Shown: piece after piece, positions 1 to 57,608 of the stretch | Layout: every line of letters starts with the position of its first letter | How positions within the stretch are numbered: position 1 is the first letter of the stretch | NCBI RefSeq assembly: GCF_058153355.1 | Contig: NZ_CM177019.1 | Reading direction: 5' to 3' (one strand) | Length of the DNA: 64,000 nucleotides | Made by a program: the position numbers and the translations under genes | The notes under the pieces: generated by a model | Databases searched by the model: none | What the model was told of the DNA's origin: nothing | What the model saw: the letters and a program-made list of their open reading frames with translations, nothing else

Positions 1-172
1 GTCGAACGTTTTTCTTGGCGACTGTAAGACCGATACGGGGATGCCCCAGCGAATTCAGGCGGCCGAGAATGGTAATTTGCGGCGTGCCAGCCCGTTGTGG
101 CTGCTGGAAGACGAATGTGAATTGACTGGGAGTTAACAAGCGTAACTCCCTGGGAAATGCGAGCTTAACCAC
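1..172 (-). CDS. rnpA: RNase P protein component, N-terminal part; gene runs off the window start
   Basis: Minus-strand frame from a GTG at 170-172 translates [57 protein letters not shown]; lies directly downstream of rpmH as in the conserved rpmH-rnpA operon. Confidence 0.85.
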
Positions 173-188
173 TCAGGGGTTAGCTTTA

Positions 189-935
<747 letters not shown>

Positions 936-2339
936 GTGTCACTTTCGCTTTGGCAGCAGTGTCTTGCCCGATTGCAGGATGAGTTACCAGCCACAGAATT
1001 CAGTATGTGGATACGCCCATTGCAGGCGGAACTGAGCGATAACACGCTGGCCCTGTACGCGCCAAACCGTTTTGTCCTCGATTGGGTACGGGACAAGTAC
1101 CTTAATAATATCAATGGACTGCTAACCAGTTTCTGCGGAGCGGATGCCCCACAGCTGCGTTTTGAAGTCGGCACCAAACCGGTGACACAAACGCCACAAG
1201 CGGCAGTGACGAGCAACGTCGCGGCCCCAGCACAGGTGGCGCATGCGCAGCCGCAACGTGTTGCGCCTTCTACGCGTTCCGGTTGGGATAACGTCCCGGC
1301 TCCGGCAGAACCGACCTATCGTTCTAACGTAAACGTCAAACACACGTTTGATAACTTCGTTGAAGGTAAATCTAACCAACTGGCGCGCGCGGCGGCTCGT
1401 CAGGTGGCTGATAACCCTGGCGGTGCCTATAACCCGTTGTTCCTTTATGGCGGCACGGGTCTGGGTAAAACTCACCTGCTGCATGCGGTGGGTAACGGCA
1501 TTATGGCGCGTAAGCCGAATGCCAAAGTGGTTTATATGCACTCCGAGCGCTTTGTTCAGGACATGGTTAAAGCCCTGCAAAACAACGCGATCGAAGAGTT
1601 TAAACGCTACTACCGTTCCGTAGATGCACTGCTGATCGACGATATTCAGTTTTTTGCTAATAAAGAACGATCTCAGGAAGAGTTTTTCCACACCTTCAAC
1701 GCCCTGCTGGAAGGTAACCAGCAGATCATTCTCACCTCGGATCGCTATCCGAAAGAGATCAACGGCGTTGAGGATCGTCTGAAATCCCGCTTCGGTTGGG
1801 GACTGACTGTGGCGATCGAACCGCCAGAGTTAGAAACCCGCGTGGCGATCCTGATGAAAAAGGCCGACGAAAACGACATTCGTTTGCCGGGCGAAGTGGC
1901 GTTCTTTATCGCCAAGCGTCTACGCTCTAACGTACGTGAGCTGGAAGGGGCGTTGAACCGCGTCATTGCTAACGCTAACTTTACCGGACGGGCGATCACC
2001 ATCGACTTCGTGCGTGAGGCGCTGCGCGACTTGCTGGCATTGCAGGAAAAACTGGTCACCATCGACAATATTCAGAAGACGGTGGCAGAGTACTACAAGA
2101 TCAAAGTTGCGGATCTCCTTTCCAAGCGTCGATCCCGCTCGGTGGCGCGTCCGCGCCAGATGGCGATGGCGCTGGCGAAAGAGTTGACTAACCACAGTCT
2201 GCCGGAGATTGGCGATGCGTTTGGTGGTCGTGACCACACAACGGTGCTTCATGCTTGCCGGAAGATCGAGCAGTTGCGTGAAGAGAGCCACGATATCAAA
2301 GAAGATTTTTCAAATTTAATCAGAACATTGTCATCGTAA
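936..2339 (+). CDS. dnaA: Chromosomal replication initiator DnaA (GTG start)
   Basis: 467-aa product starting [30 protein letters not shown]; AAA+ Walker [12 protein letters not shown]; the ORF-track start at 924 is an upstream in-frame GTG. Confidence 0.97.
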
Positions 2340-2343
2340 ACCT

Positions 2344-3443
2344 ATGAAATTTACCGTAGAACGTGAGCATTTATTAAAACCGCTACAACAGGTGAGCGGT
2401 CCGTTAGGTGGTCGTCCTACGCTACCGATTCTCGGTAATCTGCTGTTACAGGTTGCTGACGGTACGTTGTCGCTGACCGGTACCGATCTCGAGATGGAAA
2501 TGGTGGCACGTGTTGCGCTGGTTCAGCCGCACGAACCAGGGGCGACGACCGTTCCGGCGCGCAAATTCTTTGATATCTGCCGTGGTCTGCCTGAAGGCGC
2601 GGAAATTGCCGTGCAACTGGAAGGTGAGCGGATGCTGGTGCGTTCCGGGCGTAGCCGTTTTTCGCTTTCCACCCTGCCAGCAGCAGATTTCCCGAACCTC
2701 GATGACTGGCAGAGCGAAGTCGAATTTACCCTGCCGCAGGCGACGATGAAGCGTCTGATTGAAGCGACTCAGTTTTCGATGGCGCATCAGGATGTTCGCT
2801 ATTACTTAAACGGTATGCTGTTCGAAACCGAAGGTGAAGAACTGCGCACCGTGGCGACCGACGGTCACCGTCTGGCGGTCTGTTCCATGCCAATTGGTCA
2901 GTCTTTGCCAAGCCATTCGGTGATCGTGCCGCGTAAAGGTGTGATTGAACTGATGCGTATGCTCGACGGCGGCGACAATCCGCTGCGCGTGCAAATTGGC
3001 AGCAACAATATACGTGCCCACGTCGGCGACTTTATCTTCACCTCCAAACTGGTGGATGGTCGCTTCCCGGATTACCGCCGTGTTCTGCCGAAGAACCCGG
3101 ACAAACATCTGGAAGCAGGCTGCGATCTGCTCAAGCAGGCGTTTGCCCGTGCGGCGATCCTCTCCAACGAGAAATTCCGCGGCGTGCGTCTGTATGTCAG
3201 CGAAAATCAGCTGAAAATCACCGCCAATAACCCGGAACAGGAAGAAGCGGAAGAGATCCTCGACGTTACCTATAGCGGTGCGGAGATGGAAATTGGCTTC
3301 AACGTCAGCTATGTGCTGGATGTTCTGAACGCGCTGAAATGCGAAAACGTGCGCATGATGCTGACCGATTCGGTTTCCAGTGTGCAGATTGAAGATGCCG
3401 CATCACAGTCGGCTGCCTATGTTGTCATGCCAATGAGACTGTA

Positions 3444-3444
<1 letters not shown>
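2344..3444 (+). CDS. dnaN: DNA polymerase III beta sliding clamp
   Basis: 366-aa [40 protein letters not shown]; conserved position after dnaA. Confidence 0.97.
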
Positions 3445-6960
<3,516 letters not shown>

Positions 6961-6985
6961 TGGCGTTAACAATGCGAGCGTGCAT

Positions 6986-7080
6986 GATGCGCTACGCTTA
7001 TCAGGCCTACGAGACTCCTGCAATATTTTGAATTTGCATGATTTTGTAGGCCGGATCAGACGTTAACGCCGCATTCGGCA
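6986..7080. repeat. Pair of REP palindromes (BIME-like) downstream of gyrB
   Basis: gatgcgctacgcttatcaggcctac (6986-7010) and inverted copy gtaggccggatcagacgttaacgccgcattcggc (7047-7080). Confidence 0.7.
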
Positions 7081-7092
7081 AGAAGCTATAAG

Positions 7093-7126
7093 AAAAGGGC
7101 GGAGATCATCTCCGCCCTTTTTATTT
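7093..7126 (+). terminator. Intrinsic terminator candidate after gyrB
   Basis: GC stem gggcggag / ctccgccc followed by a T-run (ctttttatttc). Confidence 0.65.
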
Positions 7127-7199
7127 CTGCAATCCGCGATTATCATCCCGCAGATCTATACTTTTTGAGTCAACACGTAACGCTTTACAGGTGATTATC

Positions 7200-7598
7200 A
7201 TGGGGCTTTTTGATGAAGTTGTCGGCGCCTTTCTGAAAGGCGATGCGGGGAAATATCAGGCTATTTTGAGTTGGGTTGAGGAGCAGGGTGGCATTCAGGT
7301 GCTGTTGGAAAAACTGCAAAGTGGCGGCTTAGGTGCCATTCTCTCAACCTGGTTGAGTAATCAACAGGGCAATCAGCCGGTGAGCGGCGAGCAACTGGAG
7401 TCGGCGCTCGGCACAAATGCGGTGTCCGATCTCGGGCAAAAACTGGGTGTAGATGCCAGTACGGCTTCCAGCTTGCTGGCAGAGCAACTGCCAAAGATTA
7501 TTGATGCTCTCTCACCGCAGGGTGAAGTGTCTTCGCAAACCAATAACGATCTGCTTTCCGCAGGCATGGAACTGCTGAAAGGGAAACTCTTCCGCTAA
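7200..7598 (+). CDS. yidB: DUF937 family protein YidB
   Basis: 132-aa product from ATG at 7200 (MGLFDEVVGAFLKGDAGKYQ); the ORF-track start at 7191 is an upstream GTG. Confidence 0.85.
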   Translation: MGLFDEVVGAFLKGDAGKYQAILSWVEEQGGIQVLLEKLQSGGLGAILSTWLSNQQGNQPVSGEQLESALGTNAVSDLGQKLGVDASTASSLLAEQLPKIIDALSPQGEVSSQTNNDLLSAGMELLKGKLFR

Positions 7599-7600
7599 GC

Positions 7601-7640
7601 AAAAGGGGAGCATGCAACGCGCGTTGCATCCCCCTTTTCC
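7601..7640. other. Near-perfect 40-bp palindrome / hairpin between yidB and yidA
   Basis: aaaaggggagcatgcaacgc | gcgttgcatcccccttttcc, centred at 7620/7621. Confidence 0.5.
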
Positions 7641-7712
7641 CTCGGGTGTTGTACTGATTTTTGAGCGGAATCGCGTTAGCATGGGTCAGGAACCAATCTA
7701 CCTGGGGAACTC

Positions 7713-8525
7713 ATGGCTATCAAACTCATTGCTATCGATATGGATGGCACCCTTCTGCTGCCCGATCACACCATTTCACCCGCTGTTAAAAACGCGATTG
7801 CCGCAGCTCGCGCCCGTGGCGTGAATGTCGTGCTAACGACGGGTCGCCCTTATGCAGGTGTTCACAACTACCTGAAAGAGCTGCATATGGAACAGCCGGG
7901 CGACTACTGCATTACTTATAACGGCGCGCTGGTACAGAAGGCCGCCGATGGTAGCACCGTGGCGCAAACCGCTCTCAGCTATGACGACTACCGTTTCCTG
8001 GAAAAACTCTCTCGCGAAGTCGGTTCTCATTTCCACGCCCTGGACCGCACCACGCTGTACACCGCCAACCGGGATATCAGCCCTTACACCGTGCATGAGT
8101 CGTTTGTGGCGACGATCCCGCTGGTGTTCTGCGAAGCGGAGAAAATGGACCCCAATACCCAGTTCCTGAAAGTGATGATGATTGATGAACCCGCCATCCT
8201 CGACCAGGCTATCGCGCGTATTCCGCAGGAAGTGAAAGAGAAATATACCGTGCTGAAAAGTGCGCCGTACTTCCTCGAAATCCTCGATAAACGCGTTAAC
8301 AAAGGTACAGGTGTGAAATCACTGGCCGATGTGCTGGGCATTAAGCCGGAAGAAATCATGGCGATTGGCGATCAGGAAAACGACATCGCAATGATTGAAT
8401 ATGCAGGTGTTGGTGTGGCAATGGATAACGCTATTCCTTCGGTGAAAGAAGTGGCGAACTTTGTCACCAAATCCAACCTGGAAGATGGCGTGGCGTTTGC
8501 TATTGAGAAGTATGTGCTGAATTAA
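7713..8525 (+). CDS. yidA: HAD-family (Cof-type) sugar phosphatase YidA
   Basis: 270-aa ORF; HAD motif I in IAIDMDGTLL; C-terminal GDQENDIAM motif. Confidence 0.93.
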   Translation: MAIKLIAIDMDGTLLLPDHTISPAVKNAIAAARARGVNVVLTTGRPYAGVHNYLKELHMEQPGDYCITYNGALVQKAADGSTVAQTALSYDDYRFLEKLSREVGSHFHALDRTTLYTANRDISPYTVHESFVATIPLVFCEAEKMDPNTQFLKVMMIDEPAILDQAIARIPQEVKEKYTVLKSAPYFLEILDKRVNKGTGVKSLADVLGIKPEEIMAIGDQENDIAMIEYAGVGVAMDNAIPSVKEVANFVTKSNLEDGVAFAIEKYVLN

Positions 8526-8534
8526 TCAGTGGGA

Positions 8535-8561
8535 GGGCAAACTGCATAAATGCGTTTGCCC
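8535..8561. terminator. Hairpin between the convergent genes yidA and yidX; possible bidirectional terminator
   Basis: gggcaaac ... gtttgccc stem. Confidence 0.5.
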
Positions 8562-8568
8562 GCAGCGA

Positions 8569-9225
8569 TTAACAATTTCTGGTCGTGCATAAAATCAGGA
8601 ACTGGAGTGGTGACGTTACTATATCCAGCGTAAGAGTGACTGGTAGCAGTGCATTAGCGAGGCCGCGCGGAACGCCATCAGTTGCTTTGTACTTATAAAA
8701 TCCCACCGTAAAGGGTTGATGGAAAACCATCACGTTTGAGTAATCCGCTTTTTTATTTTTCTGGTGGATAGAGCCTTTCAGGCCGTCAAGTGCCCAGGTA
8801 CAACGCTGGGTATTACAAATAAAACCATATTGTGTCGCCAGTGCTTTATCTTCCTCATTATCCCAGTCGTAATAGAGCGTTATTGAACCAGAAAAATTAG
8901 TATCACTGCTGCTTAAAATAAATTTCGCGTTATCGGAAACGGTGATTCTTTCGCCATGAATTGCCGGATCGTTCAGCATTTTAACCACCTCGCCGCCGCC
9001 CGTGGTCAACAGATAGTCCAACGATTCACCAACAAAAACATAGCCTTTCGTACCGTTACTATCCTCTGCCAGCGATAACCCCTTAATCGAGTCTGACCGC
9101 CATTGCTCGGCATGTGGAGGACTTGCGGTATTGGAAACCAACCCCCAAGTGAGACAACCGGTCAACGCAAATGCCAAAGAACACAAACCGGCAGCCTTAA
9201 AAAATCCCTTAAAATTCAACTTTAT
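8569..9225 (-). CDS. yidX: Lipoprotein YidX (218 codons if started at the ATA codon 9223-9225)
   Basis: Signal peptide plus lipobox ([23 protein letters not shown]); AAAGGA Shine-Dalgarno 5 nt upstream; the codon at the expected start is ATA, not ATG; the ORF-track frame stays open up to 9342. Confidence 0.75.
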
Positions 9226-9359
9226 GACTAATCCTTTAAACGAGTAGCTAAGCCGTTGAAAGCATACTCTTCTTTCCCTCCTGTTTAGCGCCTGATATCC
9301 CTTTTCAGATTTCTGCCCGACGCATGTCATTTTTTTATGCATTGTTCTTTTTGTGATCT

Positions 9360-9440
9360 AAATTGTAGTACAACAATATAACTTTGTACTACATTACGCA
9401 TACAGCAAACGCGAACGTCATCACGCTGGTACTACAAAAT
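9360..9440 (+). promoter_or_regulatory. dgo promoter / DgoR operator region
   Basis: Three copies of TGTA(G/C)TACA (9364-9372, 9386-9394, 9429-9437) immediately upstream of dgoR; consistent with GntR/FadR-type operators. Confidence 0.55.
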
Positions 9441-9502
9441 TGCCGCGTTATGCATCGATCGGGGTAAAGTAGAGAAGTACATACAGAGCACAAGGACTCT
9501 CC

Positions 9503-10192
9503 ATGACTCTCAATAAAACCGATCGCATCGTCATTACGCTGGGCAAACAGATCGTTCACGGCAAATACGTGCCAGGCTCGCCGCTTCCGGCCGAGGCGGA
9601 ACTTTGTGAGGAGTTTGCAACCTCGCGCAACATCATCCGTGAGGTGTTTCGTTCGCTGATGGCGAAGCGGCTGATTGAAATGAAACGTTATCGCGGGGCG
9701 TTTGTGGCACCGCGTAATCAGTGGAATTACCTCGATACTGACGTGCTGCAATGGGTGCTGGAAAACGACTACGACCCACGGCTTATCAGTGCAATGAGCG
9801 AAGTGCGAAATCTGGTGGAACCGGCGATTGCCCGTTGGGCGGCAGAGCGCGCGACTTCCAGCGATCTGGCGCAGATTGAATCAGCGCTGAACGAGATGAT
9901 CGCCAACAATCAGGACCGCGAAGCGTTTAACGAAGCGGATATTCGCTATCACGAGGCGGTACTGCAATCAGTGCATAACCCGGTGTTACAGCAACTTAGC
10001 ATTGCGATTAGTTCATTACAGCGGGCGGTTTTTGAACGAACCTGGATGGGCGATGAGGCCAACATGCCGCAAACGCTCCAGGAACATAAGGCGCTGTTTG
10101 ATGCGATACGGCATCAGGACGGCGATGCGGCAGAGCAGGCGGCGCTTACCATGATCGCCAGCTCGACACGAAGGTTAAAGGAAATCACATGA
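9503..10192 (+). CDS. dgoR: GntR/FadR-family repressor of D-galactonate catabolism
   Basis: 229-aa ORF; first gene of the dgo cluster. Confidence 0.92.
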   Translation: MTLNKTDRIVITLGKQIVHGKYVPGSPLPAEAELCEEFATSRNIIREVFRSLMAKRLIEMKRYRGAFVAPRNQWNYLDTDVLQWVLENDYDPRLISAMSEVRNLVEPAIARWAAERATSSDLAQIESALNEMIANNQDREAFNEADIRYHEAVLQSVHNPVLQQLSIAISSLQRAVFERTWMGDEANMPQTLQEHKALFDAIRHQDGDAAEQAALTMIASSTRRLKEIT

Positions 10193-11067
10193 CAGCTCGC
10201 TACATCGCAATTGACTGGGGATCGACCAATCTGCGCGCCTGGCTTTATCAGGGCGACCACTGCCTGGACAGCAGGCAATCAGAAGCAGGCGTTACGCGTC
10301 TGAACGGAAAATCTCCGGCTGCGGTGTTAGCAGAAGTGACGACCGACTGGTGTGAAGAGAATACGCCAGTGGTGATGGCAGGAATGGTTGGCAGCAATGT
10401 CGGCTGGAAAGTTGCGCCGTATTTATCTGTTCCTGCCCGTTTTTCGTCTATTGGCGAACAATTAACGTCTGTTGGCGACAATATCTGGATTATTCCCGGA
10501 TTATGCGTTTCTCATGATGATAACCACAATGTGATGCGCGGCGAAGAAACACAATTGATCGGCGCGCGTGCTTTGGCTCCTTCCTCTCTTTATGTCATGC
10601 CCGGTACGCATTGCAAATGGGTGCAGGCCGATAGCCAGCAAATCAACGATTTTCGCACCGTGATGACCGGTGAATTACATCATTTACTGTTAAATCATTC
10701 ATTGATTGGCGCAGGTTTACCACCGCAGGAAAACTCTGCCGATGCCTTCGCGGCTGGCCTTGAGCGTGGTCTCAATGCGCCCGCCATATTGCCGCAGCTT
10801 TTTGAAGTTCGTGCCTCGCATGTGCTGGGAACACTTCCCCGTGAACAGGTCAGCGAATTTCTCTCTGGTTTGTTGATTGGCGCAGAGGTCGCCAGTATGC
10901 GCGACTACGTGGTCCATCAACACGCCATCACCCTTGTCGCCGGAACATCGCTGACTGCACGCTACCAGCAAGCCTTTCAGGCGATGGGTTGCGACGTGAC
11001 GGCGGTGGCGGGCGACACGGCATTTCAGGCTGGTATAAGGAGCATCGCTCATGCAGTGGCAAACTAA
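10189..11067 (+). CDS. dgoK: 2-dehydro-3-deoxygalactonokinase
   Basis: 292-aa ORF; start overlaps the dgoR stop. Confidence 0.92.
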   Translation: MTARYIAIDWGSTNLRAWLYQGDHCLDSRQSEAGVTRLNGKSPAAVLAEVTTDWCEENTPVVMAGMVGSNVGWKVAPYLSVPARFSSIGEQLTSVGDNIWIIPGLCVSHDDNHNVMRGEETQLIGARALAPSSLYVMPGTHCKWVQADSQQINDFRTVMTGELHHLLLNHSLIGAGLPPQENSADAFAAGLERGLNAPAILPQLFEVRASHVLGTLPREQVSEFLSGLLIGAEVASMRDYVVHQHAITLVAGTSLTARYQQAFQAMGCDVTAVAGDTAFQAGIRSIAHAVAN

Positions 11068-11668
11068 ACTCCCGCTGATCGCCATTTTGCGCGGTATTAC
11101 GCCCGACGAGGCGCTGGCGCATGTTGGCGCGGTGATTGACGCTGGGTTCGACGCGGTTGAAATCCCTCTGAATTCCCCACAATGGGAACAAAGCATTCCC
11201 GCCATCGTTGATGCGTATGGCGACAAGGCGTTGATTGGCGCAGGTACGGTACTGAAACCTGAACAGGTCGATGCGCTCGCCAGGATGGGCTGTCAGCTCA
11301 TCGTTACGCCCAATATCCATAGTGAAGTGATCCGCCGCGCGGTGGGCTATGGCATGACCGTTTGCCCCGGCTGCGCGACGGCGACAGAAGCCTTTACCGC
11401 GATCGACGCGGGCGCTCAGGCGCTGAAAATATTCCCGTCATCGGCTTTTGGGCCGCAATACATCAAAGCGTTAAAAGCGGTATTACCGCAGGACATCCCG
11501 GTCTTTGCCGTAGGCGGTGTGACGCCAGAAAACCTGGCGCAGTGGATAGACGCAGGTTGTGCAGGGGCGGGCTTAGGCAGCGATCTCTATCGCGCCGGGC
11601 AGTCCGTAGAACGCACCGCGCAGCAGGCAGCAGCATTTGTTAAGGCGTATCGAGAGGCAGTGCAATGA
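11051..11668 (+). CDS. dgoA: 2-dehydro-3-deoxy-6-phosphogalactonate aldolase
   Basis: 205-aa ORF in conserved dgo gene order. Confidence 0.92.
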
Positions 11669-12702
11669 AAATCACCAACATTACTACGTATCGTTTACCT
11701 CCCCGCTGGATGTTCCTGAAAATTGAAACTGATGAAGGCGTGGTCGGTTGGGGCGAGCCCGTGATCGAAGGCCGCGCTCGTACGGTGGAAGCGGCAGTTC
11801 ACGAGCTGAGTGACTATTTGATTGGTCAGGATCCATCGCGCATCAATGACTTATGGCAAGTGATGTATCGCGCCGGATTTTATCGTGGCGGTCCGATTCT
11901 GATGAGCGCCATCGCCGGGATCGACCAGGCGTTATGGGATATCAAAGGTAAAGTGCTGAATGCGCCGGTCTGGCAACTGATGGGCGGCCTGGTTCGCGAC
12001 AAAATTAAAGCCTACAGTTGGGTCGGCGGCGATCGTCCGGCGGATGTTATCGACGGCATTAAAACGCTACGCGAAATCGGCTTCGATACCTTCAAACTGA
12101 ACGGTTGTGAAGAACTGGGATTGATTGATAACTCCCGCGCGGTAGATGCGGCGGTCAACACCGTGGCACAAATTCGTGAAGCTTTTGGCAATCAGATTGA
12201 GTTTGGTCTTGATTTCCACGGTCGCGTCAGCGCGCCGATGGCGAAAGTGCTGATTAAAGAACTGGAACCGTATCGCCCTCTGTTTATTGAAGAGCCGGTG
12301 CTGGCGGAACAAGCCGAATACTACCCGAAACTGGCAGCACAAACTCACATCCCACTGGCGGCGGGTGAGCGCATGTTCTCACGTTTCGATTTTAAACGTG
12401 TGCTGGAAGCTGGCGGTATTTCGATTCTGCAACCCGATCTTTCTCACGCAGGTGGTATTACCGAATGCTACAAAATTGCCGGAATGGCGGAAGCCTATGA
12501 CGTGACCCTTGCGCCGCACTGTCCGCTCGGCCCGATTGCACTGGCGGCTTGCCTGCATATCGACTTTGTTTCCTATAACGCGGTACTTCAGGAACAAAGT
12601 ATGGGCATTCATTACAACAAAGGCGCGGAGTTACTCGACTTTGTGAAAAATAAAGAAGACTTCAGCATGGTCGGTAATGCCGATCAGTTAAGGATCAGTT
12701 GA
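11665..12702 (+). pseudogene. dgoD: D-galactonate dehydratase, truncated by IS4 after about codon 336; the last 8 codons and the stop are read from IS4 sequence
   Basis: Enolase-superfamily N-terminus ([32 protein letters not shown]); reading frame runs into the IS4 left inverted repeat at 12675 and ends NADQLRIS*; full-length DgoD is about 382 aa as I recall. Confidence 0.88.
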
Positions 12703-14100
12703 CCGATCCAGTGGCTGTGTAAGAATCCGGAAACGCTCACTTGTTTCCGGATTTTTTTATGCACATTGGACAGGCTCTTGATCTGGTATCCCGTTACGAT
12801 TCTCTGCGTAACCCACTGACTTCTCTGGGGGATTACCTCGACCCCGAACTCATCTCTCGTTGCCTTGCCGAATCAGGTACTGTAACGCTACGCAAGCGCC
12901 GTCTTCCCCTCGAAATGATGGTCTGGTGTATTGTTGGCATGGCGCTTGAGCGTAAAGAACCTCTTCACCAGATTGTGAATCGCCTGGACATCATGCTGCC
13001 GGGCAATCGCCCCTTCGTTGCCCCCAGTGCCGTTATTCAGGCCCGCCAGCGCCTGGGAAGTGAGGCTGTCCGCCGCGTGTTCACGAAAACAGCGCAGCTC
13101 TGGCATAACGCCACGCCGCATCCGCACTGGTGCGGCCTGACCCTGCTGGCCATCGATGGTGTGTTCTGGCGCACACCGGATACACCAGAGAACGATGCAG
13201 CCTTCCCCCGCCAGACACATGCCGGGAACCCGGCGCTCTACCCGCAGGTCAAAATGGTCTGCCAGATGGAACTGACCAGCCATCTGCTGACGGCTGCAGC
13301 CTTCGGCACGATGAAGAACAGCGAAAATGAGCTTGCTGAGCAACTTATAGAACAAACCGGCGATAACACTCTGACGTTAATGGATAAAGGTTATTACTCA
13401 CTGGGACTGTTAAATGCCTGGAGCCTGGCGGGAGAACACCGCCACTGGATGATACCTCTCAGAAAGGGAGCGCAATATGAAGAGATCAGAAAACTGGGTA
13501 AAGGCGATCATCTGGTGAAGCTGAAAACCAGCCCGCAGGCACGAAAAAAGTGGCCGGGACTGGGAAATGAAGTGACAGCCCGCCTGCTGACCGTGACGCG
13601 CAAAGGAAAAGTCTGCCATCTGCTGACGTCGATGACGGACGCCATGCGCTTCCCCGGAGGAGAAATGGCGGATCTGTACAGTCATCGCTGGGAAATCGAA
13701 CTGGGATACAGGGAGATAAAACAGACGATGCAACTGAGCAGGCTGACGCTGAGAAGTAAAAAGCCGGAGCTTGTGGAGCAAGAGCTGTGGGGTGTCTTAC
13801 TGGCTTATAATCTGGTGAGATATCAGATGATTAAAATGGCGGAACATCTGAAAGGTTACTGGCCGAATCAACTGAGTTTCTCAGAATCATGCGGAATGGT
13901 GATGAGAATGCTGATGACATTGCAGGGCGCTTCACCGGGACGTATACCGGAGCTGATGCGCGATCTTGCAAGTATGGGACAACTTGTGAAATTACCGACA
14001 AGAAGGGAAAGGGCCTTCCCGAGAGTGGTAAAGGAGAGGCCCTGGAAATACCCCACAGCCCCGAAAAAGAGCCAGTCAGTTGCTTAACTGACTGGCATTA
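12675..14100 (+). mobile_element. IS4, complete (1426 bp) with imperfect 18-bp terminal inverted repeats
   Basis: Left IR taatgccgatcagttaag (12675-12692); right IR cttaactgactggcatta (14083-14100); flanks tcagcatggtcgg and gaccgatttggcc do not form a direct repeat. Confidence 0.93.
12759..14087 (+). CDS. insG: IS4 transposase (DDE)
   Basis: 442-aa product from ATG at 12759 ([31 protein letters not shown]...); the ORF-track start at 12741 is an upstream TTG. Confidence 0.93.
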
Positions 14101-14134
14101 GACCGATTTGGCCCCGTTCTATTTTTTAGTGAAC

Positions 14135-16600
<2,466 letters not shown>

Positions 16601-47642: not shown

Positions 47643-48701
47643 TTATTCAGGCGTAAAGTGGCGTAAATGTTGTACCGTGGCAAGCCAGGCTGCCACCCAG
47701 CCAATCATCGAACACACCAGCAGCAAAAGCAGACATTCATCGAAAGATAAGCCATTGATATCAAACCTCGTTCCGAAAACCTGTGCCACTTCCGCAACCG
47801 CCGAAGACAAACGCAGGACCAGAATTTCCGACAAAATTAATGACAGCAATGCGCCAGAAAATCCCAGCAATGCGCCACCGTACAGGAATGGGCGCAGGAT
47901 GAAACCATCTGTCGCACCAATCAGTTTCTGTACGTTAATGGAGTCACGGCGAGCAAAGATGCTCAGACGCACACTGTTACCGATGACGAGGAACACTGCC
48001 GCCACCATCAATACGCCGATCATTGCCGAAACGCGCCCGACCAGCCCGGTCAACGCCGCCAGACGGGCAAACCAGCTGTCATCCATTCGCACTTCGTCAA
48101 TGCCGTTGATCTGGGTGATACGATCGCGCAAGGTATTCAGTGACTCGGTCCCCTGAAAATCGAGTTTCGGGATTACCACCGCCACTGCCGGAAGCGGGTT
48201 TTCCTCCAGCATATCCAGCGCACCACCAAAACCAGACCAGTTACGGAACTCGCCCAGTGCGTCTTCACGAGAAAGATAGTTTACTTTCTCTACGCCTTGC
48301 TCGGCCTGCAACTGTGCCACCACACCCGCAGCGGCGTCATCATCCAGCGTTTTTTGCAGATAAACAGTGATTTGCGGTGACGGATAATACTGCGTCGCCG
48401 CCTGGTTAACGTTTTTGTACACCATATAACAGACGCTGGGCAGCGTCAGGGAGATGGCGATAACCATCACCGTTAAAAACGTGGCGAACGGTTTACTTTT
48501 CAGATCCTGCAATGCGCCGTGGAAGGCATAGCGCACCTGTTCGTTGAAAACGTTGGTTTTGCGATTTACCGGTTTTGGCGAGGATTTCGCCCGTTTTGGC
48601 GCGTTACGACCGCCGTCGCCAGAGCCGCCGACCGATTTACGGAAGCGATCCAGACGCCCGCCAAACTGCCGGATATGATTGATTGCATCGCGCTTATTCA
48701 T
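47643..48701 (-). CDS. ftsX: Cell division ABC transporter permease-like protein
   Basis: 352-aa product from [20 protein letters not shown]; the ORF-track frame extends 9 codons upstream. Confidence 0.95.
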
Positions 48702-49362
48702 GGCCCACGCCTCCATGCAAGTGACCATCGCTCAGGGTGAGCATGCGATAGGAACGCCGCGAAATCAGGTTGATGTCGTGCGTTGCCATCAATACGGTTA
48801 CCCCAACGCGGTTAAATTCTTCAAACAGACGTAGAATTCCTTCTGACAACGCGTCGTCAAGGTTACCGGTCGGTTCATCCGCCAGCAGTACCGCGGGTTT
48901 GTTCACCACCGCGCGGGCAATGCCAACACGCTGTTGTTCACCGCCGGAAAGCTGAATAGGGAAGTTCTTCGCTTTGTCCAGTAGCCCGACTTTATCCAGC
49001 GCCGCCGATACACGACGACGAATATCGTCACCGCTGGCACCGGCGATAATCAGCGGGATCGCGACGTTATCGTAGACAGTACGGTCCATCAGTAGATGGT
49101 GATCCTGGAAAATCATGCCAATCTGGCGGCGCAGAAACGGAACTTCACGGTTTTTCAGACGCGTGATGTCATGGCCGCTAAACCAGATTTTCCCGGCGCT
49201 GGGCCGCTCAATCCCACAGATCAGCTTCAGGAGGGTACTTTTCCCTGCGCCGGAATGACCGGTCAGAAACGCCATCTCACCCGGCTGCATATGGAACGTA
49301 ACGCCCTGCAGCGCCTGTCTCCCACCGAGATAAGCCTTGCTGACATGTTCAAAGCGAATCAT
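48694..49362 (-). CDS. ftsE: Cell division ATP-binding protein
   Basis: 222-aa ORF with Walker [10 protein letters not shown]. Confidence 0.96.
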
Positions 49363-49364
49363 TG

Positions 49365-50903
49365 TTAATCCTCTCGGGCAAAAAGTGCCTCTATAAAGTC
49401 GTCCGCTTTAAACGGACGCAAATCCTCAATACGTTCGCCGACACCAATGTAGCGGATAGGGATACCAAACTGGTCAGCCACCGAGAAAATTACCCCGCCT
49501 TTCGCCGTGCCGTCCAGTTTCGTTAGCGTGATGCCGGTTAAGCCAACGGCTTCGTGGAACAGTTTGGCCTGGCTTACTGCATTCTGCCCGGTACTGGCGT
49601 CGATAGTCAGCATAACTTCATGCGGAGCTTCAACGTCGAGTTTCTTCATCACGCGGACGATTTTCTTCAACTCTTCCATCAAGTGCGATTTGTTCTGCAG
49701 GCGTCCGGCGGTATCGGCAATCAGAACGTCGATGTTACGCGCTTTAGCGGCCTGAATGGCGTCGAAGATAACAGAAGCAGAATCCGCACCGGTATGCTGG
49801 GCAATCACCGGAATATTATTACGCTGCCCCCAGACCTGAAGCTGTTCAACCGCTGCTGCACGGAAAGTATCGCCCGCCGCCAGCATCACTGATTTACCCT
49901 GCTGCTCAAACTGACGCGCCAGCTTACCGATCGTCGTGGTTTTACCCACACCGTTGACGCCCACCATCAGGATCACGAACGGCGTTTTACCTTCAACGTT
50001 CAGCGGTTCATCGACTTTCGCCAGAATCTCACCCATCTCTTCTTTCAGTAGGCCATAGAGCGCCTCGGCATCACGAAGCTGCTTGCGGGTCGCACCTTCT
50101 GTCAGATTGGTGATAATTTTACGCGTGGTTTCCACGCCCACATCGGCGATGAGCAATTGCTCTTCCAATTCTTCAAACAGATCATCGTCGATTTTTTTAC
50201 CGCGGAACAGGCTGATAAATCCGGAACCGAGGTTTTCTTTGGTTTTTAACAGACTGCGTTTCAGGCGCGCGAAGAAACCTTCTTTGGTCGGTTTTTCCTG
50301 CTCCTGAGCGATTTCTTCCACCGGCTGCTCTTCTTCTGCCGGAGGAACCACCATCACCGCCTCTTCTGCCGCTTCGGCAGCCAGCGCCTGTGCTTCCAGC
50401 TCTTCGTCGGTGATTTCGTCTTTAGCCGCTTCTTCTTCCGCCGCTTCGACAATCTCTACGGTTTCCGCTTCGGCCTGCCACTCTTCTGGCGAAACCTCTT
50501 CGGCTTTGACGTCTTCCGGCAACGGCAGCTCTTCACGCTCGATAGCCACAGGCTCTGGCGTAACTTCAGGTTCAATGACTGACGCTGGCGTTTCTTCAAC
50601 TATCGTTTCCGGCTCAGTAATAACTTCCGGTTCAGCAACAGCTTCAGGCTGCGCTTTTTCACTTTCAGCAACCTGTTCAGTAACTTCCACAACGTCGGCA
50701 GCAAAAGTTTCCGCCTCGGCTTCAGTATGCGCCTGCGGCTGCTCTTCAACGGCTTGTTCAGAAGCCTTCGCAGGCTCTTGCGCCGGAACGATTTCTTCTA
50801 CAACCGGTTGTTCGTTCTGGACTTCTGTCTCTTTTTCCGGGGTCTGCTCTTTTTGACCAAAGCCCAGCCAGGAAAAAAAGCCACGTTTTTTTTCTTTCGC
50901 CAT
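49365..50903 (-). CDS. ftsY: Signal recognition particle receptor (512 aa here)
   Basis: Acidic Glu/Pro/Val-rich N-terminal domain plus C-terminal SRP GTPase (GVNGVGKTTTIGKLA). Confidence 0.95.
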   Translation of the reverse strand: MAKEKKRGFFSWLGFGQKEQTPEKETEVQNEQPVVEEIVPAQEPAKASEQAVEEQPQAHTEAEAETFAADVVEVTEQVAESEKAQPEAVAEPEVITEPETIVEETPASVIEPEVTPEPVAIEREELPLPEDVKAEEVSPEEWQAEAETVEIVEAAEEEAAKDEITDEELEAQALAAEAAEEAVMVVPPAEEEQPVEEIAQEQEKPTKEGFFARLKRSLLKTKENLGSGFISLFRGKKIDDDLFEELEEQLLIADVGVETTRKIITNLTEGATRKQLRDAEALYGLLKEEMGEILAKVDEPLNVEGKTPFVILMVGVNGVGKTTTIGKLARQFEQQGKSVMLAAGDTFRAAAVEQLQVWGQRNNIPVIAQHTGADSASVIFDAIQAAKARNIDVLIADTAGRLQNKSHLMEELKKIVRVMKKLDVEAPHEVMLTIDASTGQNAVSQAKLFHEAVGLTGITLTKLDGTAKGGVIFSVADQFGIPIRYIGVGERIEDLRPFKADDFIEALFARED

Positions 50904-51052
50904 TTGCGACTACACTCCTCGCTGTTGCTTCATGGCACAGCGTTAACGCTATGTACATAGCAGCTAAAAAAATGATGAAATAGTCTATCACTTAACTTAA
51001 TTCACATCACCGCCTGCAAGTATGTGTTATCTGGCGGATTGAGCAATTTATC

Positions 51053-51649
51053 ATGAAAAAACCGAATCATTCCGGCAGCGGCCAAATCCGCATTATTGGC
51101 GGGCAGTGGCGAGGCCGTAAACTCCCGGTTCCTGATAGCCCAGGCCTGCGCCCCACCACCGACCGCGTACGCGAAACGTTGTTTAACTGGCTGGCTCCGG
51201 TCATTGTTGATGCCCAATGTCTGGATTGCTTCGCCGGGAGCGGCGCGCTGGGGCTGGAAGCGTTATCGCGCTACGCTGCGGGGGCCACGTTGATTGAGAT
51301 GGATCGCGCGGTTTCTCAGCAGTTAATTAAGAATCTGGCGACACTAAAAGCAGGCAATGCACGCGTGGTGAACAGCAACGCGATGTCATTCCTGGCGCAA
51401 AAAGGCACACCGCATAATATCGTGTTTGTCGATCCACCGTTCCGCCGTGGCTTGTTAGAAGAGACGATAAATTTACTGGAAGATAACGGCTGGCTGGCTG
51501 ACGAAGCCCTGATTTATGTCGAAAGCGAAGTCGAAAACGGTCTGCCCACTGTTCCGGCGAACTGGTCATTACATCGGGAAAAAGTGGCGGGTCAGGTGGC
51601 TTACCGCCTGTATCAACGCGAAGCACAAGGAGAAAGTGATGTTGATTAA
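51053..51649 (+). CDS. rsmD: 16S rRNA (guanine966-N2)-methyltransferase
   Basis: 198-aa ORF with methyltransferase motif DCFAGSGALGLEALSR. Confidence 0.93.
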   Translation: MKKPNHSGSGQIRIIGGQWRGRKLPVPDSPGLRPTTDRVRETLFNWLAPVIVDAQCLDCFAGSGALGLEALSRYAAGATLIEMDRAVSQQLIKNLATLKAGNARVVNSNAMSFLAQKGTPHNIVFVDPPFRRGLLEETINLLEDNGWLADEALIYVESEVENGLPTVPANWSLHREKVAGQVAYRLYQREAQGESDVD

Positions 51650-51908
51650 TATTGGTCGTGTGTTAATGCTCTGCGTTTGGGGATTTTTAATCCTCAACCT
51701 GGTGCATCCCTTCCCGCGTCCGCTGAATATTTTCGTTAACGTGGCGCTGATTTTTACCGTGCTGATGCATGGTATGCAGCTGGCGCTATTGAAATCCACT
51801 TTGCCGAAAGATGGCCCGCAGATGACCACCGCCGAAAAGGTGCGGATTTTCCTTTTCGGCGTGTTTGAACTGCTGGTCTGGCAGAAGAAATTTAACGTTA
51901 AAAAATAA
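51639..51908 (+). CDS. yhhL: DUF1145 small membrane protein
   Basis: 89-aa product from MLINIGRVLMLCVWGFLILNL; overlaps the rsmD 3' end by 11 nt; the ORF-track start is 41 codons upstream. Confidence 0.8.
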   Translation: MLINIGRVLMLCVWGFLILNLVHPFPRPLNIFVNVALIFTVLMHGMQLALLKSTLPKDGPQMTTAEKVRIFLFGVFELLVWQKKFNVKK

Positions 51909-51910
51909 CC

Positions 51911-52270
51911 TTATTGTTTGCTGACAAAGCTGACAAAGCGCGTTCCTTTATAGCTCAGCGTACCTTTATCGCCCACTGTCAGGGCATGGTACTGCTGGGC
52001 GTCGAGGCGAAACGTCTGTTCCATTCCTCCGCTTTGCGGTTTGAAGCTCGCCTCATAGCGCATGCTGGTACCAGCCGGTGTCACTTCCTGCTGGCGCGAA
52101 CGGCGATCGTTAATCGGTTTTTCCCGCTTATTGCTCACCACCACCAACTTTTGCTGGAGTGGCGCTATATCATTATCAGCTTTTTCCCGTCGCTGTTGCA
52201 TAAAACGAAACGATGCGGCGACGATAATTAAGCCAATGATAACAATAAAGAAAAGAGGTGGTTTGCTCAT
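51911..52270 (-). CDS. yhhM: DUF2500 membrane-anchored protein
   Basis: 119-aa ORF with N-terminal TM segment. Confidence 0.85.
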   Translation of the reverse strand: MSKPPLFFIVIIGLIIVAASFRFMQQRREKADNDIAPLQQKLVVVSNKREKPINDRRSRQQEVTPAGTSMRYEASFKPQSGGMEQTFRLDAQQYHALTVGDKGTLSYKGTRFVSFVSKQ

Positions 52271-52410
52271 CTTTATCCCTCATCGGAAAATGCGGAAATA
52301 AGCATACCCTGCCAGTTATGGTGTTGTCATCCGTCCACCCTCGCCACTAAACTGGAAACAAGACCGTAGGCATTCCGCTTACGAAAAAATAACGAATTCA
52401 AGGAACTAAG

Positions 52411-53037
52411 ATGCTTTGGTCGTTTATCGCAGTCTGTCTTTCCGCATGGCTATCTGTGGATGCATCGTATCGTGGGCCAACCTGGCAACGCTGGGTGTTT
52501 AAACCGTTAACCCTTCTTCTCCTGCTGTTACTGGCATGGCAAGCGCCGATGTTCGACGCCATTAGTTATCTGGTGCTGGCAGGGCTGTGCGCTTCACTGC
52601 TGGGCGATGCGCTAACCCTGTTGCCACGTCAACGTCTGATGTACGCCATCGGCGCGTTTTTCCTCTCGCACCTGCTGTACACTATCTATTTCGCCAGTCA
52701 GATGACGCTCTCTTTCTTCTGGCCTCTGCCACTGGTGTTGCTGGTTCTGGGCGCGCTGTTACTGGCGATTATCTGGACGCGTCTGGAAGAGTATCGTTGG
52801 CCTATCTGCACGTTTATCGGCATGACGCTGGTGATGGTATGGCTGGCAGGTGAACTGTGGTTCTTCCGTCCGACCGCTCCGGCACTCTCTGCGTTTGTCG
52901 GCGCTTCGTTGCTGTTTATCAGTAACTTTGTCTGGCTGGGTAGTCACTATCGCCGACGCTTCCGTGCGGACAACGCGATTGCCGCCGCTTGTTATTTTGC
53001 CGGTCACTTCCTCATCGTCCGCTCGCTGTATCTCTGA
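52411..53037 (+). CDS. yhhN: YhhN-family inner membrane protein
   Basis: 208-aa polytopic ORF. Confidence 0.88.
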
Positions 53038-53043
53038 TAAAAC

Positions 53044-53075
53044 TTGACTCTGGAGTCGACTCCAGAGTGTATCCT
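53044..53075 (+). promoter_or_regulatory. zntA promoter with ZntR (MerR-type) operator
   Basis: -35 TTGACT (53044-53049); 22-bp palindrome actctggagtcgactccagagt in a long spacer; -10-like TATCCT (53070-53075). Confidence 0.8.
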
Positions 53076-53109
53076 TCGGTTAATGAGAAAAACTTAACCG
53101 GAGGATGCC

Positions 53110-55308
53110 ATGTCGACTCCTGACAATCACGGCAAGAAAGCCCCTCAATTTGCCGCGTTCAAACCGCTACCCACGGTTCAGAACGCCAACGACTGTTGCT
53201 GCGACGGCGCATGTTCCAGCACGCCAACGCTCTCTGAAAACGTCTCCGGCACCCGCTATAGCTGGAAAGTCAGCGGCATGGACTGCGCCGCCTGCGCGCG
53301 CAAGGTAGAAAATGCCGTGCGCCAGCTTGCAGGCGTGAATCAGGTGCAGGTGTTGTTCGCCACCGAAAAACTGGTGGTGGATGCCGACAATGACATCCGT
53401 GCCCAGGTTGAATCTGCGGTGCAAAAAGCGGGCTATTCCCTGCGCGATGAACAGTCCGCCGACGAACAACAAGAATCACGCCTGAAAGAGAATCTGCCGC
53501 TGATTACGCTAATCGTGTTGATGGCAATTAGCTGGGGGCTAGAGCAGTTTAATCATCCGTTCGGGCAACTGGCGTTTATCGCGACCACGCTGGTTGGGCT
53601 GTACCCGATTGCTCGTCAGGCATTACGGCTGATCAAATCCGGCAGCTACTTCGCTATTGAAACCTTAATGAGCGTAGCCGCTATTGGTGCGCTGTTTATT
53701 GGCGCAACGGCTGAAGCTGCGATGGTGTTGCTGCTGTTTTTGATTGGTGAACGACTGGAAGGCTGGGCCGCCAGCCGCGCGCGTCAAGGGGTCAGCGCGT
53801 TAATGGCGCTGAAACCGGAAACCGCCACGCGCCTGCGTAATGGCAAGCGTGAAGAGGTAGCAATTAACAGCCTGCGTCCGGGCGATGTTATCGAAGTTGC
53901 GGCAGGTGGGCGTTTACCTGCCGACGGTAAACTGCTCTCGCCCTTTGCCAGTTTTGATGAAAGCGCCCTGACCGGCGAATCCATTCCGGTGGAGCGCGCG
54001 ACGGGTGATAAAGTTCCTGCAGGCGCCACCAGCGTAGACCGTCTGGTAACGCTGGAAGTGCTGTCAGAACCGGGTGCCAGCGCCATTGACCGGATTCTGA
54101 AACTGATCGAAGAAGCCGAAGAGCGCCGCGCGCCCATTGAGCGGTTTATCGACCGTTTCAGCCGTATTTACACGCCAGCGATTATGGCCGTCGCCCTGCT
54201 GGTGACGCTGGTGCCACCGCTGCTGTTTGCCGCAAGCTGGCAGGAGTGGATTTATAAAGGGCTGACGCTGCTGCTGATTGGCTGCCCGTGTGCGCTGGTG
54301 ATCTCAACACCTGCGGCGATCACCTCCGGGCTGGCGGCAGCAGCGCGTCATGGGGCGTTGATTAAAGGCGGTGCGGCGCTGGAACAACTAGGTCGTGTTA
54401 CCCAGGTGGCGTTTGATAAAACCGGCACGCTGACCGTCGGTAAACCGCGCGTTACCGCGATTCATCCGGCAACGGGTATTAGTGAATCTGAACTGCTGAC
54501 ACTGGCAGCGGCGGTCGAGCAAGGCGCGACGCATCCACTGGCGCAAGCCATCGTACGCGAAGCACAGGTTGCTGAACTCGCCATTCCCGCCGCCGAATCA
54601 CAGCGGGCGCTGGTCGGGTCTGGTATTGAAGCACTGATTAACGGTGAGCGCGTGTTGATATGCGCTGCCGGAAAACATCCGGCTGTTGCATTTGCTGGTT
54701 TAATTAACGAACTGGAAAGCGCCGGGCAAACGGTAGTACTGGTGGTGCGTAACGATGAAGTGCTGGGTGTCATTGCATTGCAGGATACCCTGCGCGCCGA
54801 CGCCGCAACTGCCATCAGCGAACTGAGCGCCCTGGGTGTCAAAGGGGTGATCCTCACTGGCGATAATCCACGCGCCGCGGCGGCAATTGCCGGGGAGTTG
54901 GGGCTGGAATTTAAAGCGGGCCTATTACCAGAAGATAAAGTCAAAGCGGTGACCGAGCTGAATCAACATGCGCCTCTGGCGATGGTCGGTGACGGTATTA
55001 ACGACGCGCCAGCGATGAAAGCCGCCACCATTGGGATTGCAATGGGCAGTGGCACAGATGTGGCGCTGGAAACCGCCGATGCAGCATTAACCCATAACCA
55101 CCTGCGCGGCCTGGCGCAGATGATTGAACTGGCACGCGCCACTCACGCCAACATCCGCCAGAACATCACCATTGCGCTGGGGCTGAAAGGGATCTTCCTC
55201 GTCACAACGCTGTTAGGGATGACCGGACTATGGCTGGCGGTGCTGGCAGATACGGGTGCGACGGTGCTGGTGACGGCGAATGCGTTAAGATTGTTGCGCA
55301 GGAAGTAA
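53110..55308 (+). CDS. zntA: Zn/Cd/Pb-exporting P1B-type ATPase
   Basis: 732-aa ORF; N-terminal metal-binding GMDCAAC, CPC in LIGCPCALVIS, DKTGTLT phosphorylation motif. Confidence 0.97.
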   Translation: MSTPDNHGKKAPQFAAFKPLPTVQNANDCCCDGACSSTPTLSENVSGTRYSWKVSGMDCAACARKVENAVRQLAGVNQVQVLFATEKLVVDADNDIRAQVESAVQKAGYSLRDEQSADEQQESRLKENLPLITLIVLMAISWGLEQFNHPFGQLAFIATTLVGLYPIARQALRLIKSGSYFAIETLMSVAAIGALFIGATAEAAMVLLLFLIGERLEGWAASRARQGVSALMALKPETATRLRNGKREEVAINSLRPGDVIEVAAGGRLPADGKLLSPFASFDESALTGESIPVERATGDKVPAGATSVDRLVTLEVLSEPGASAIDRILKLIEEAEERRAPIERFIDRFSRIYTPAIMAVALLVTLVPPLLFAASWQEWIYKGLTLLLIGCPCALVISTPAAITSGLAAAARHGALIKGGAALEQLGRVTQVAFDKTGTLTVGKPRVTAIHPATGISESELLTLAAAVEQGATHPLAQAIVREAQVAELAIPAAESQRALVGSGIEALINGERVLICAAGKHPAVAFAGLINELESAGQTVVLVVRNDEVLGVIALQDTLRADAATAISELSALGVKGVILTGDNPRAAAAIAGELGLEFKAGLLPEDKVKAVTELNQHAPLAMVGDGINDAPAMKAATIGIAMGSGTDVALETADAALTHNHLRGLAQMIELARATHANIRQNITIALGLKGIFLVTTLLGMTGLWLAVLADTGATVLVTANALRLLRRK

Positions 55309-55315
55309 AAGTGTT

Positions 55316-55340
55316 GCCTGATAGCCTCTGGCTATCAGGC
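55316..55340. terminator. Hairpin between zntA and the convergent small ORF
   Basis: gcctgatagcc tct ggctatcaggc; U-rich tract only on the minus-strand side. Confidence 0.55.
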
Positions 55341-55649
55341 TTAGTGCTGGGCCGGGAACGGCGGCATAGTCAGGAAAGCATAATAAAGCGCTAACATCAG
55401 AATGACGGAGATAACACAGCATCCAGCAACCAGGCGGGATGCTATGGATGGCCTTTTGAACATCAACCACAGGGCATAAGCAAGCCCGACACCGTTAAGT
55501 AAAGGTAAAAAAATCATTAGCCAGAGCCAACCCCAGGCAAGTACCCCCAGCCATCCCCCCACGACGATAAAAACAGGGATCAGCCAATTGGGGGTGAAGA
55601 TCGCGAGCAATCCCAGCAATGCCAGACAAACTGGAATTAAATAATCCAT
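55341..55649 (-). CDS. Hypothetical small inner membrane protein (102 aa)
   Basis: ORF MDYLIPVCLALLGLLAIFTPNWLIPVFIVVGGWLGVLAWGWLWLMIFLPLLNGVGLAYALWLMFKRPSIASRLVAGCCVISVILMLALYYAFLTMPPFPAQH; three hydrophobic segments; not a gene I can name. Confidence 0.4.
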   Translation of the reverse strand: MDYLIPVCLALLGLLAIFTPNWLIPVFIVVGGWLGVLAWGWLWLMIFLPLLNGVGLAYALWLMFKRPSIASRLVAGCCVISVILMLALYYAFLTMPPFPAQH

Positions 55650-55673
55650 TTGTGCATTCCATTACGTTTGCGT

Positions 55674-56926
<1,253 letters not shown>

Positions 56927-56956
56927 CATGCCTGCAATCTGGGAAACCGGGGTAGA

Positions 56957-56988
<32 letters not shown>

Positions 56989-57002
56989 AGGGCATTGAAC
57001 TC

Positions 57003-57087
57003 GTAGGCATGATAAGACGCGACAGCGTCGCATCAGGCATTGCGCACCGTATCGCCAGATGCAGCTTGAACGTTTTATCCGTCCTAC
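57003..57087. repeat. REP palindromes right of IS621 (rest of the BIME)
   Basis: gtaggcatgataagacgcgacagcgtcgcatcaggc and gccagatgcagcttgaacgttttatccgtcctac. Confidence 0.65.
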
Positions 57088-57142
57088 AAACCGGTTGCAA
57101 GCCGCAAAATTGAGCGCGATCGGTCCGCTAGCCTGATTCACC

Positions 57143-57388
57143 TTACCCCGATTTGCGAATCAAATAACGATAAGGCAGTCCATCGGTCTCTTTCGCAACC
57201 AGTTCGTGTTCCATAAAGGTACAAAACCCAGGAATATCGCGTGTCGTCGCCGGATCGTCAGCAATAATCAGCAACGTTTCACCTGGCTGCATATTGCGCA
57301 CAGTTTTGCGCACCATCATTACTGGTTCCGGGCAGCGCAGGCCAAGTGCGTCGAGTGTGTGGTCAGGGCTGGAAAAGAGATCGGTCAT
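57143..57388 (-). CDS. tusA: Sulfur carrier protein TusA
   Basis: 81-aa [31 protein letters not shown] with CPxP motif. Confidence 0.95.
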
Positions 57389-57608
57389 TTTCTTCTCATC
57401 ACATAAAAAAACGGCGCTAGTTTACGCCCTGTGAGTCCGTAAGCAAACCAGGTTAACGATTGCGTGAAAATTAACCATTGCATTGTCAACGTAAAGCAGT
57501 ATCATGCGGCGGCTCGAAAAAAGGGTCAGCACGTTATTATGTTAAGGTAACAGACGTGTCGTACGTATTGGGTTCCCTCACCCCAATGGTTAATCAAAAA
57601 GGTACAAT

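Follow-up and report, generated by a model that had tools for sequence, protein, structure and literature searches.

The 64,000-nucleotide stretch of DNA analysed here (contig NZ_CM177019.1 of the RefSeq assembly GCF_058153355.1, referred to as the window) carries an intact ftsY gene that encodes an SRP receptor of 512 amino acids. The gene is very probably a natural long allele in which the window lineage has kept the ancestral length of the protein, the FtsY of K-12 and of most other E. coli having been shortened by deletions in the A domain.

The ftsY gene and its product

The ORF list placed ftsY on the minus strand at window positions 49365-50903, with MAKEKKRGFFSWLGFG as the N-terminus of the 512-residue product. 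The homologous stretch was annotated as ftsY in all of the matching complete E. coli genomes in RefSeq (5,425/5,425). Comparison of the window ORFs with the K-12 annotation gave the same gene order in both, ftsY-ftsE-ftsX with rpoH downstream and rsmD divergent. The Pfam scan showed an SRP54-type N helical bundle (PF02881, SRP54_N), scoring 56 bits against a cut-off of 22.4, followed by the SRP54 GTPase domain (PF00448, SRP54), scoring 268 bits against a cut-off of 22.7. The gene of the window is FtsY, the SRP receptor, and it is intact. Its parts and its nearest neighbour are as follows.

49365..50903, minus strand: ftsY coding sequence, SRP receptor FtsY, 512 codons and a stop codon (ORF list; RefSeq annotation)
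48694..49362, minus strand: ftsE, the next gene of the ftsYEX operon, given for context only (ORF list; same gene order in K-12)
49380..50231, minus strand: NG domain, with SRP54_N at residues 225-290 and the SRP54 GTPase at residues 308-508 (Pfam scan; 99.3% identity to K-12)
50238..50273, minus strand: stretch identical to K-12 (alignment), with the role described in PMC2928010
50280..50903, minus strand: A domain, residues 1-208, ending at the conserved GFFxRL motif; acidic and of low complexity (composition; enterobacterial length comparison)
50856..50903, minus strand: basic stretch MAKEKKRGFFSWLGFG at the N terminus, lipid-binding and unchanged from K-12 (alignment; role as described in PMC5094494)

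The A part of 208 residues consisted of 28% Glu, 15% Ala, 11% Val and 9% Pro, and its net charge was -50. Both lipid-binding elements of the protein, whose roles are described in PMC5094494 and PMC2928010, aligned with the K-12 sequence without any change. Given the 99.3% identity between its NG part and that of K-12, the window FtsY is predicted from its sequence to form the GTP-dependent complex with Ffh/4.5S RNA and to bind the membrane and SecYEG.

An ORF of 148 residues, rich in Ser, Thr and Ala, was found antisense to the A-domain coding region (window 50410-50856, plus strand); the GAA/GCN-rich composition of the sense strand most likely accounts for this ORF, which is then no gene. The Rfam scan of window positions 49000-57500 yielded zero families at the gathering threshold.

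Three in-frame indels in the A domain

The gene of K-12 MG1655 (b3464, NC_000913.3 3602750-3604243) measures 1494 nt and encodes 497 residues (NP_417921.1), which confirmed the length of about 497 residues that an earlier note on this DNA had set against the 512 residues of the window ORF. K-12 FtsY shares with the window protein the ftsYEX-rpoH neighbourhood, the N-terminal anchor and the A-N junction helix, and its NG part is 99.3% identical, but it is 15 residues shorter. Alignment of the proteins and of the DNA resolved this difference into three indels that preserve the frame, with 4, 10 and 1 codons, which appear in K-12 as three gaps in the central A domain. The earlier note had thus located the difference correctly in the A domain.

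50630..50641, minus strand: 12-nt (4-codon) segment, present here and missing in K-12 and most E. coli (DNA alignment)
50562..50591, minus strand: 30-nt (10-codon, TPASVIEPEV) segment, present here and missing in K-12 and most E. coli (DNA alignment)
50389..50391, minus strand: 3-nt (1-codon) difference, EAQA here and ET-A in K-12 (protein and DNA alignment)

The 12-nt and the 30-nt indels lay within positions 50400-50860, to which the earlier note had assigned the difference, and the 3-nt indel lay 9 nt beyond them. The codon at 50389-50391 is retained in the 498-residue allele of the E. coli majority. The 14 residues of the two larger segments contribute three extra Glu. Apart from the indels, 11 substitutions distinguished the two A domains (94.3% identity over the aligned positions). 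From GFFxRL to the C terminus, two substitutions and no gaps separated the window protein from that of K-12, and both SRP54_N and SRP54 scored far above threshold, in agreement with the earlier description of the GTPase domain as standard.

Lineage of the window

The earlier note had taken the length of FtsY as a sign that the strain was not a plain K-12 reference, which is true but understated, as the whole window was ~95-97% identical to K-12, with ~94-98% per kilobase where aligned. The nearest relatives were the same ~18 RefSeq genomes named "E. coli" over 14-38 kb and over 39-55 kb of the window, with identities of 98.2-99.2%. Over 40 kb, EC42405 was the closest genome (98.7-99.2%), other clade I strains reached 98.2-98.9%, and genomes outside the nearest group showed at most ~96.5% identity to the window. 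EC42405 and 2013C-4282 are complete-genome strains of cryptic clade I, a group whose members share ANI above 98.3% with one another and above 95.9% with E. coli sensu stricto (PMC10100065). Because the nearest genomes include these clade I strains, the window, judged from its nearest neighbours over 64 kb, most likely belongs to the E. coli sensu lato lineage known as cryptic clade I, and the source strain is most likely not itself among the finished genomes. Other differences between the window and K-12 are to be read in light of this divergent, probably clade I, lineage.

In EC42405, FtsY (WP_001040621.1) also had 512 residues, and its A-domain sequence was the same as that of the window. 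The ftsY DNA of this strain was 99.6% identical to the window, with a few silent or near-silent differences, within 16 kb around ftsY that were 98.7% identical.

Allele distribution and the probable ancestral length of FtsY

Within E. coli, the long segment was detected in 49 of the 5,426 complete genomes, using a 141-nt probe that covers both of the larger segments and accepting matches over at least 80% of the probe length. The count is exact for this long class alone, and the remaining length classes were estimated from 60 records spaced evenly along the ranked list of matching complete E. coli genomes. In this sample, ftsY measured 1497 nt in 38 records and 1494 nt (the K-12 type) in 19, with one record each of 1488, 1377 and 1539 nt. 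The survey of A-domain length across E. coli genomes thus returned alleles of 458, 495, 497, 498 and 512 residues. The FtsY of CH10508 (495 residues) and that of PSJ-07 (458 residues, lacking 40 residues of the central A domain) were both annotated as intact.

Outside E. coli, a 512-residue FtsY with both larger segments was found in E. marmotae, E. ruysiae, E. whittamii, Escherichia sp. E10V10 and the species representative SCPM-O-B-8794. Escherichia sp. E1V33 had both segments together with a separate 3-residue gap, and E. albertii kept the 4-codon segment and had a different 8-codon gap. The A domains of these non-coli proteins were only 84-93% identical to that of the window, with 86-93% for those of 512 residues, and owing to this low identity the carriers represent independent lineages rather than recent copies. 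Because the 512-residue form, the usual length in the genus, is common to Escherichia species with divergent sequences, it is K-12 that appears to have the shortened form. The long state is probably ancestral in the genus Escherichia and the shorter protein found in E. coli sensu stricto derived by deletion, a polarity that is based on parsimony over ~10 sequences from a region that recombines between lineages, which can mislead parsimony. The earlier framing of the window protein as longer than that of K-12 therefore probably reversed the polarity, the 512-residue form being present in several divergent Escherichia species. Between the two gaps, the K-12 sequence (EVVAQPEPVVEE) resembled the corresponding stretch of the long E. 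whittamii and E10V10 alleles (EVSAQPEPVVEE) more than it resembled the window sequence (EVITEPETIVEE), which agrees with descent of K-12 from an ancestor with the long form. E. fergusonii was considered as a further independent witness of the ancestral state and was rejected, its ftsY region apparently being an import from a clade-I-like donor (see below).

On this polarity, E. coli sensu stricto, including K-12, would have lost 4 codons in one in-frame deletion and 10 in another, with one additional codon lost in the K-12 type. K-12 would then not be an ancestral reference for the length of FtsY, and the numbering of A-domain residues shifts by up to 15 among Escherichia lineages.

Tolerance of the A domain to changes in length

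FtsY was compared among 78 Enterobacterales species representatives, K-12 and the window. When only the A domain served as the query of a protein search, mostly truncated fragments were obtained, and the lengths were taken from a scan of the species-representative genomes. The other Enterobacterales proteins followed the same plan, in which the N terminus is basic, the centre acidic and disordered, and the junction helix conserved, together with the NG part. The part from GFFxRL to the end had 304 residues in every member of the set, and all of the length variation resided in the A part, which ranged from 152 residues in Kosakonia to 272 in Kluyvera, with a median of 203. Identity to the window was 97-100% in NG and 61-98% in the A part, the A parts of Klebsiella, Salmonella and Citrobacter being 61-73% identical.

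NMR of K-12 FtsY has shown that residues 38-140 are highly dynamic and make no contact with lipid, and that the central acidic A domain binds SecYEG through non-specific electrostatic interactions and serves as a flexible tether (PMC5094494). Depletion of FtsY is complemented by the variant FtsY-NG+1, in which Phe196 is all that is left of the A domain and whose targeting of a model substrate in vitro was reduced by 26% only (PMC2928010). The two larger indels mapped into the 38-140 region of K-12, and the single-codon difference lay at K-12 position 157, within the transiently helical stretch 152-161. As this literature describes the central A domain as disordered, as a tether acting through charge and as largely dispensable, no functional change is expected, and the window FtsY is predicted to work like K-12 FtsY without qualitative difference. 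[quoted passage not shown]

A functional meaning of the length difference, in which a longer and more acidic tether alters the engagement of SecYEG or the membrane and selection has brought the short allele close to fixation in E. coli sensu stricto, is very unlikely. The contribution of charge in the central A domain to SecYEG binding (PMC5094494), together with the three Glu added by the 14 extra residues, would agree with such a role, and the short allele is indeed nearly fixed in E. coli sensu stricto; shared ancestry, however, predicts near fixation equally. Moreover, the variation of the A part between 152 and 272 residues among related species is patternless, natural E. coli alleles exist without 40 residues of the A domain, and depletion of FtsY is complemented by NG+1 (PMC2928010). 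It is very unlikely, too, that the A-domain dimorphism is tuned to function, so that co-translational targeting would depend on the length and charge of the tether, and that the ftsY neighbourhood is at the same time a hotspot of exchange between lineages.

PSJ-07 (locus L089) is a human commensal E. coli, with ftsY at 1001-2377 of that locus, and its 40-residue loss takes out the stretch that matches the transient helix 152-161 of K-12. This allele provides a natural test of the dispensability of the A domain. Taken with the A parts of 152-272 residues in the family, the E. coli alleles of 458-512 residues make up a free "mutagenesis series", and this natural length series agrees with what has been published, namely that composition and not sequence underlies the working of the central A domain.

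Probable recombination around ftsY

E. fergusonii was 97-99.8% identical to the window (mean 97.5-98.3%) over at least 23.6 kb (31.7-55.3 kb), a tract length that is a lower bound, as the left boundary lies beyond window 31.7 kb. Across this tract E. fergusonii was closer to the window than K-12 was, and beyond 57 kb its identity to the window dropped to 75-91%. Four E. fergusonii sequences, from the type strain and other assemblies (L004, L005, L092 and L093), agreed on the tract, which holds ggt, ugp, liv, rpoH, ftsXEY, rsmD, yhhLMN and zntA. The FtsY of E. fergusonii ATCC 35469 (CAQ90914.1) had 512 residues and was 99% identical to the window FtsY (98.1% in the A part and 100% in NG), with a variable segment identical to that of the window.

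These likenesses, namely the identity of 97-99.8% to ATCC 35469 across 31.7-55.3 kb and the shared variable segment in the A domain, are what would be seen if E. fergusonii had donated the long ftsY to the window lineage by recombination. This direction of transfer is nevertheless very improbable. In the neighbour-joining trees of both flanks of ftsY, E. fergusonii fell inside E. coli sensu lato as the sister of clade I, whereas in the segment past the tract it was the outgroup to all other Escherichia, with 11-12% divergence. In addition, the window and K-12 diverged by ~4-5.6% in the tract, near the level found elsewhere in the window. The trees and the divergence levels therefore point to transfer into E. 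fergusonii and not out of it. On the simplest reading of the sequences, E. fergusonii received by import a clade-I-like block that includes the essential genes rpoH and ftsYEX, and the likeness of its FtsY to that of the window would be due to this import.

Besides SMS-3-5, ~30 complete E. coli genomes outside the clade I group carried the long segment. SMS-3-5 is a phylogroup F reference (PMC10100065). The first ~450 nt of its ftsY were 98.7% identical to the window and 94.2% to K-12 or UPEC 536, and the remainder was 99.7% identical to UPEC 536. Its variable peptide was the clade I version. This pattern suggests that SMS-3-5 is a mosaic with a clade-I-type recombination patch in ftsY rather than the carrier of a retained old E. 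coli allele, although the clade-I-type 5' end may instead reflect a shared ancestral polymorphism. In the SMS-3-5 locus (L086), positions ~6000-6450 and the tusA-yhhQ end were within ~1% of the window and of clade I type. Clade I and E. coli sensu stricto may thus have exchanged DNA in the ftsY region.

Short direct repeats at the indel junctions

Two sequence features of the A-domain coding region bear on how the length differences arose.

50555..50561, minus strand: ACGCCAG, a 7-nt direct repeat, in its second copy (motif positions, gene nt 313 and 343)
50607..50650, minus strand: weak 18-nt (6-residue, xEPExx) periodicity, 2.4 copies with 76% match (Tandem Repeats Finder; hexapeptide layout)

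The first copy of ACGCCAG (window 50585-50591) forms the start of the 30-nt segment and the second copy follows directly after the segment; the copies are exactly 30 nt apart, and the 7-nt repeat spans the deletion junction. Two other natural alleles showed similar boundaries, the 120-nt deletion of PSJ-07 being bounded by the 8-nt direct repeat CAGAAGAG and the 9-nt deletion of CH10508 by the 4-nt repeat GAAG. At the 12-nt segment, CTGAA occurred at gene nt 257 and 269, 12 nt apart, with one extra substitution needed, and the exact homology at the junction was 1 nt in the window allele and 5 nt in the E. whittamii allele. A junction repeat was sought at the 3-nt change and none was found. The loss of the 30 nt appears to bear the signature of a deletion between short direct repeats, for which replication slippage or illegitimate recombination between such repeats in GAA/CCG-rich DNA would be the mechanism.

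The 30-nt segment matched either neighbouring 30 nt at 13 of 30 positions, and the 12-nt segment matched adjacent sequence at no more than 6 of 12. A change in tandem-repeat copy number was rejected on these grounds, one weak 18-nt array having been detected and the segments being unlike their neighbours. The earlier description of the A domain as repetitive and prone to in-frame repeat indels was right in that in-frame indels accumulate there, but the repetitiveness is weak and the changes are not gains or losses of repeat units.

The earlier note had implied that the long A domain was a lineage-specific expansion, by insertion or gain of repeat units, in this strain or its close relatives. 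The rarity of the long form in E. coli (49/5,426 complete genomes) and the overlap of the weak 18-nt periodicity with the region would fit this idea, which is highly unlikely all the same: both segments occur, in diverged sequence, in at least five other species-level lineages of Escherichia, neither is a copy of the sequence next to it, and the flanking direct repeats are as expected of the substrate of a deletion.

The long allele in public records

The exact 512-residue protein of the window was found on 381 public contigs in a large protein collection, and ftsY genes of 1539 nt are annotated as intact in RefSeq, for example those of WP_001040621.1 and WP_001040624.1. With these records, an N terminus that is the same as in K-12 and a reading frame that is open throughout, the chance that the extra length is an artefact of sequencing or assembly error or of a wrong start codon is practically negligible. 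The 512-residue allele is uncommon in finished E. coli genomes, yet it is an ordinary one, already known, catalogued and correctly annotated.

Mobile elements elsewhere in the window

IS621 is a bridge-RNA recombinase element of the IS110 family. An ORF of 326 residues (window 55898-56878, plus strand) matched the PDB entry 8wt6, "IS621 transposase", from end to end with an E value of 4.5e-218. This IS621 copy lies between zntA and tusA, at a site that is empty in K-12 and in E. fergusonii, and within a stretch of the window (~55300-57000) that remained unaligned.

At the other end, window positions 1-14135 carry dnaA-dnaN-recF-gyrB-yidA...dgoR-dgoK-dgoD (Pfam), then an IS4-family transposase at 12741-14087, with glgP directly after it. 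In K-12, the dgoD and glgP blocks are ~307 kb apart and in opposite relative orientation. The dgoD-IS4-glgP arrangement looks like either an inversion-type junction at the IS4 element or an assembly join. The junction in one piece was found in 0 of the 5,426 complete E. coli genomes, and an IS4 element adjoining glgP was common among complete E. coli genomes.
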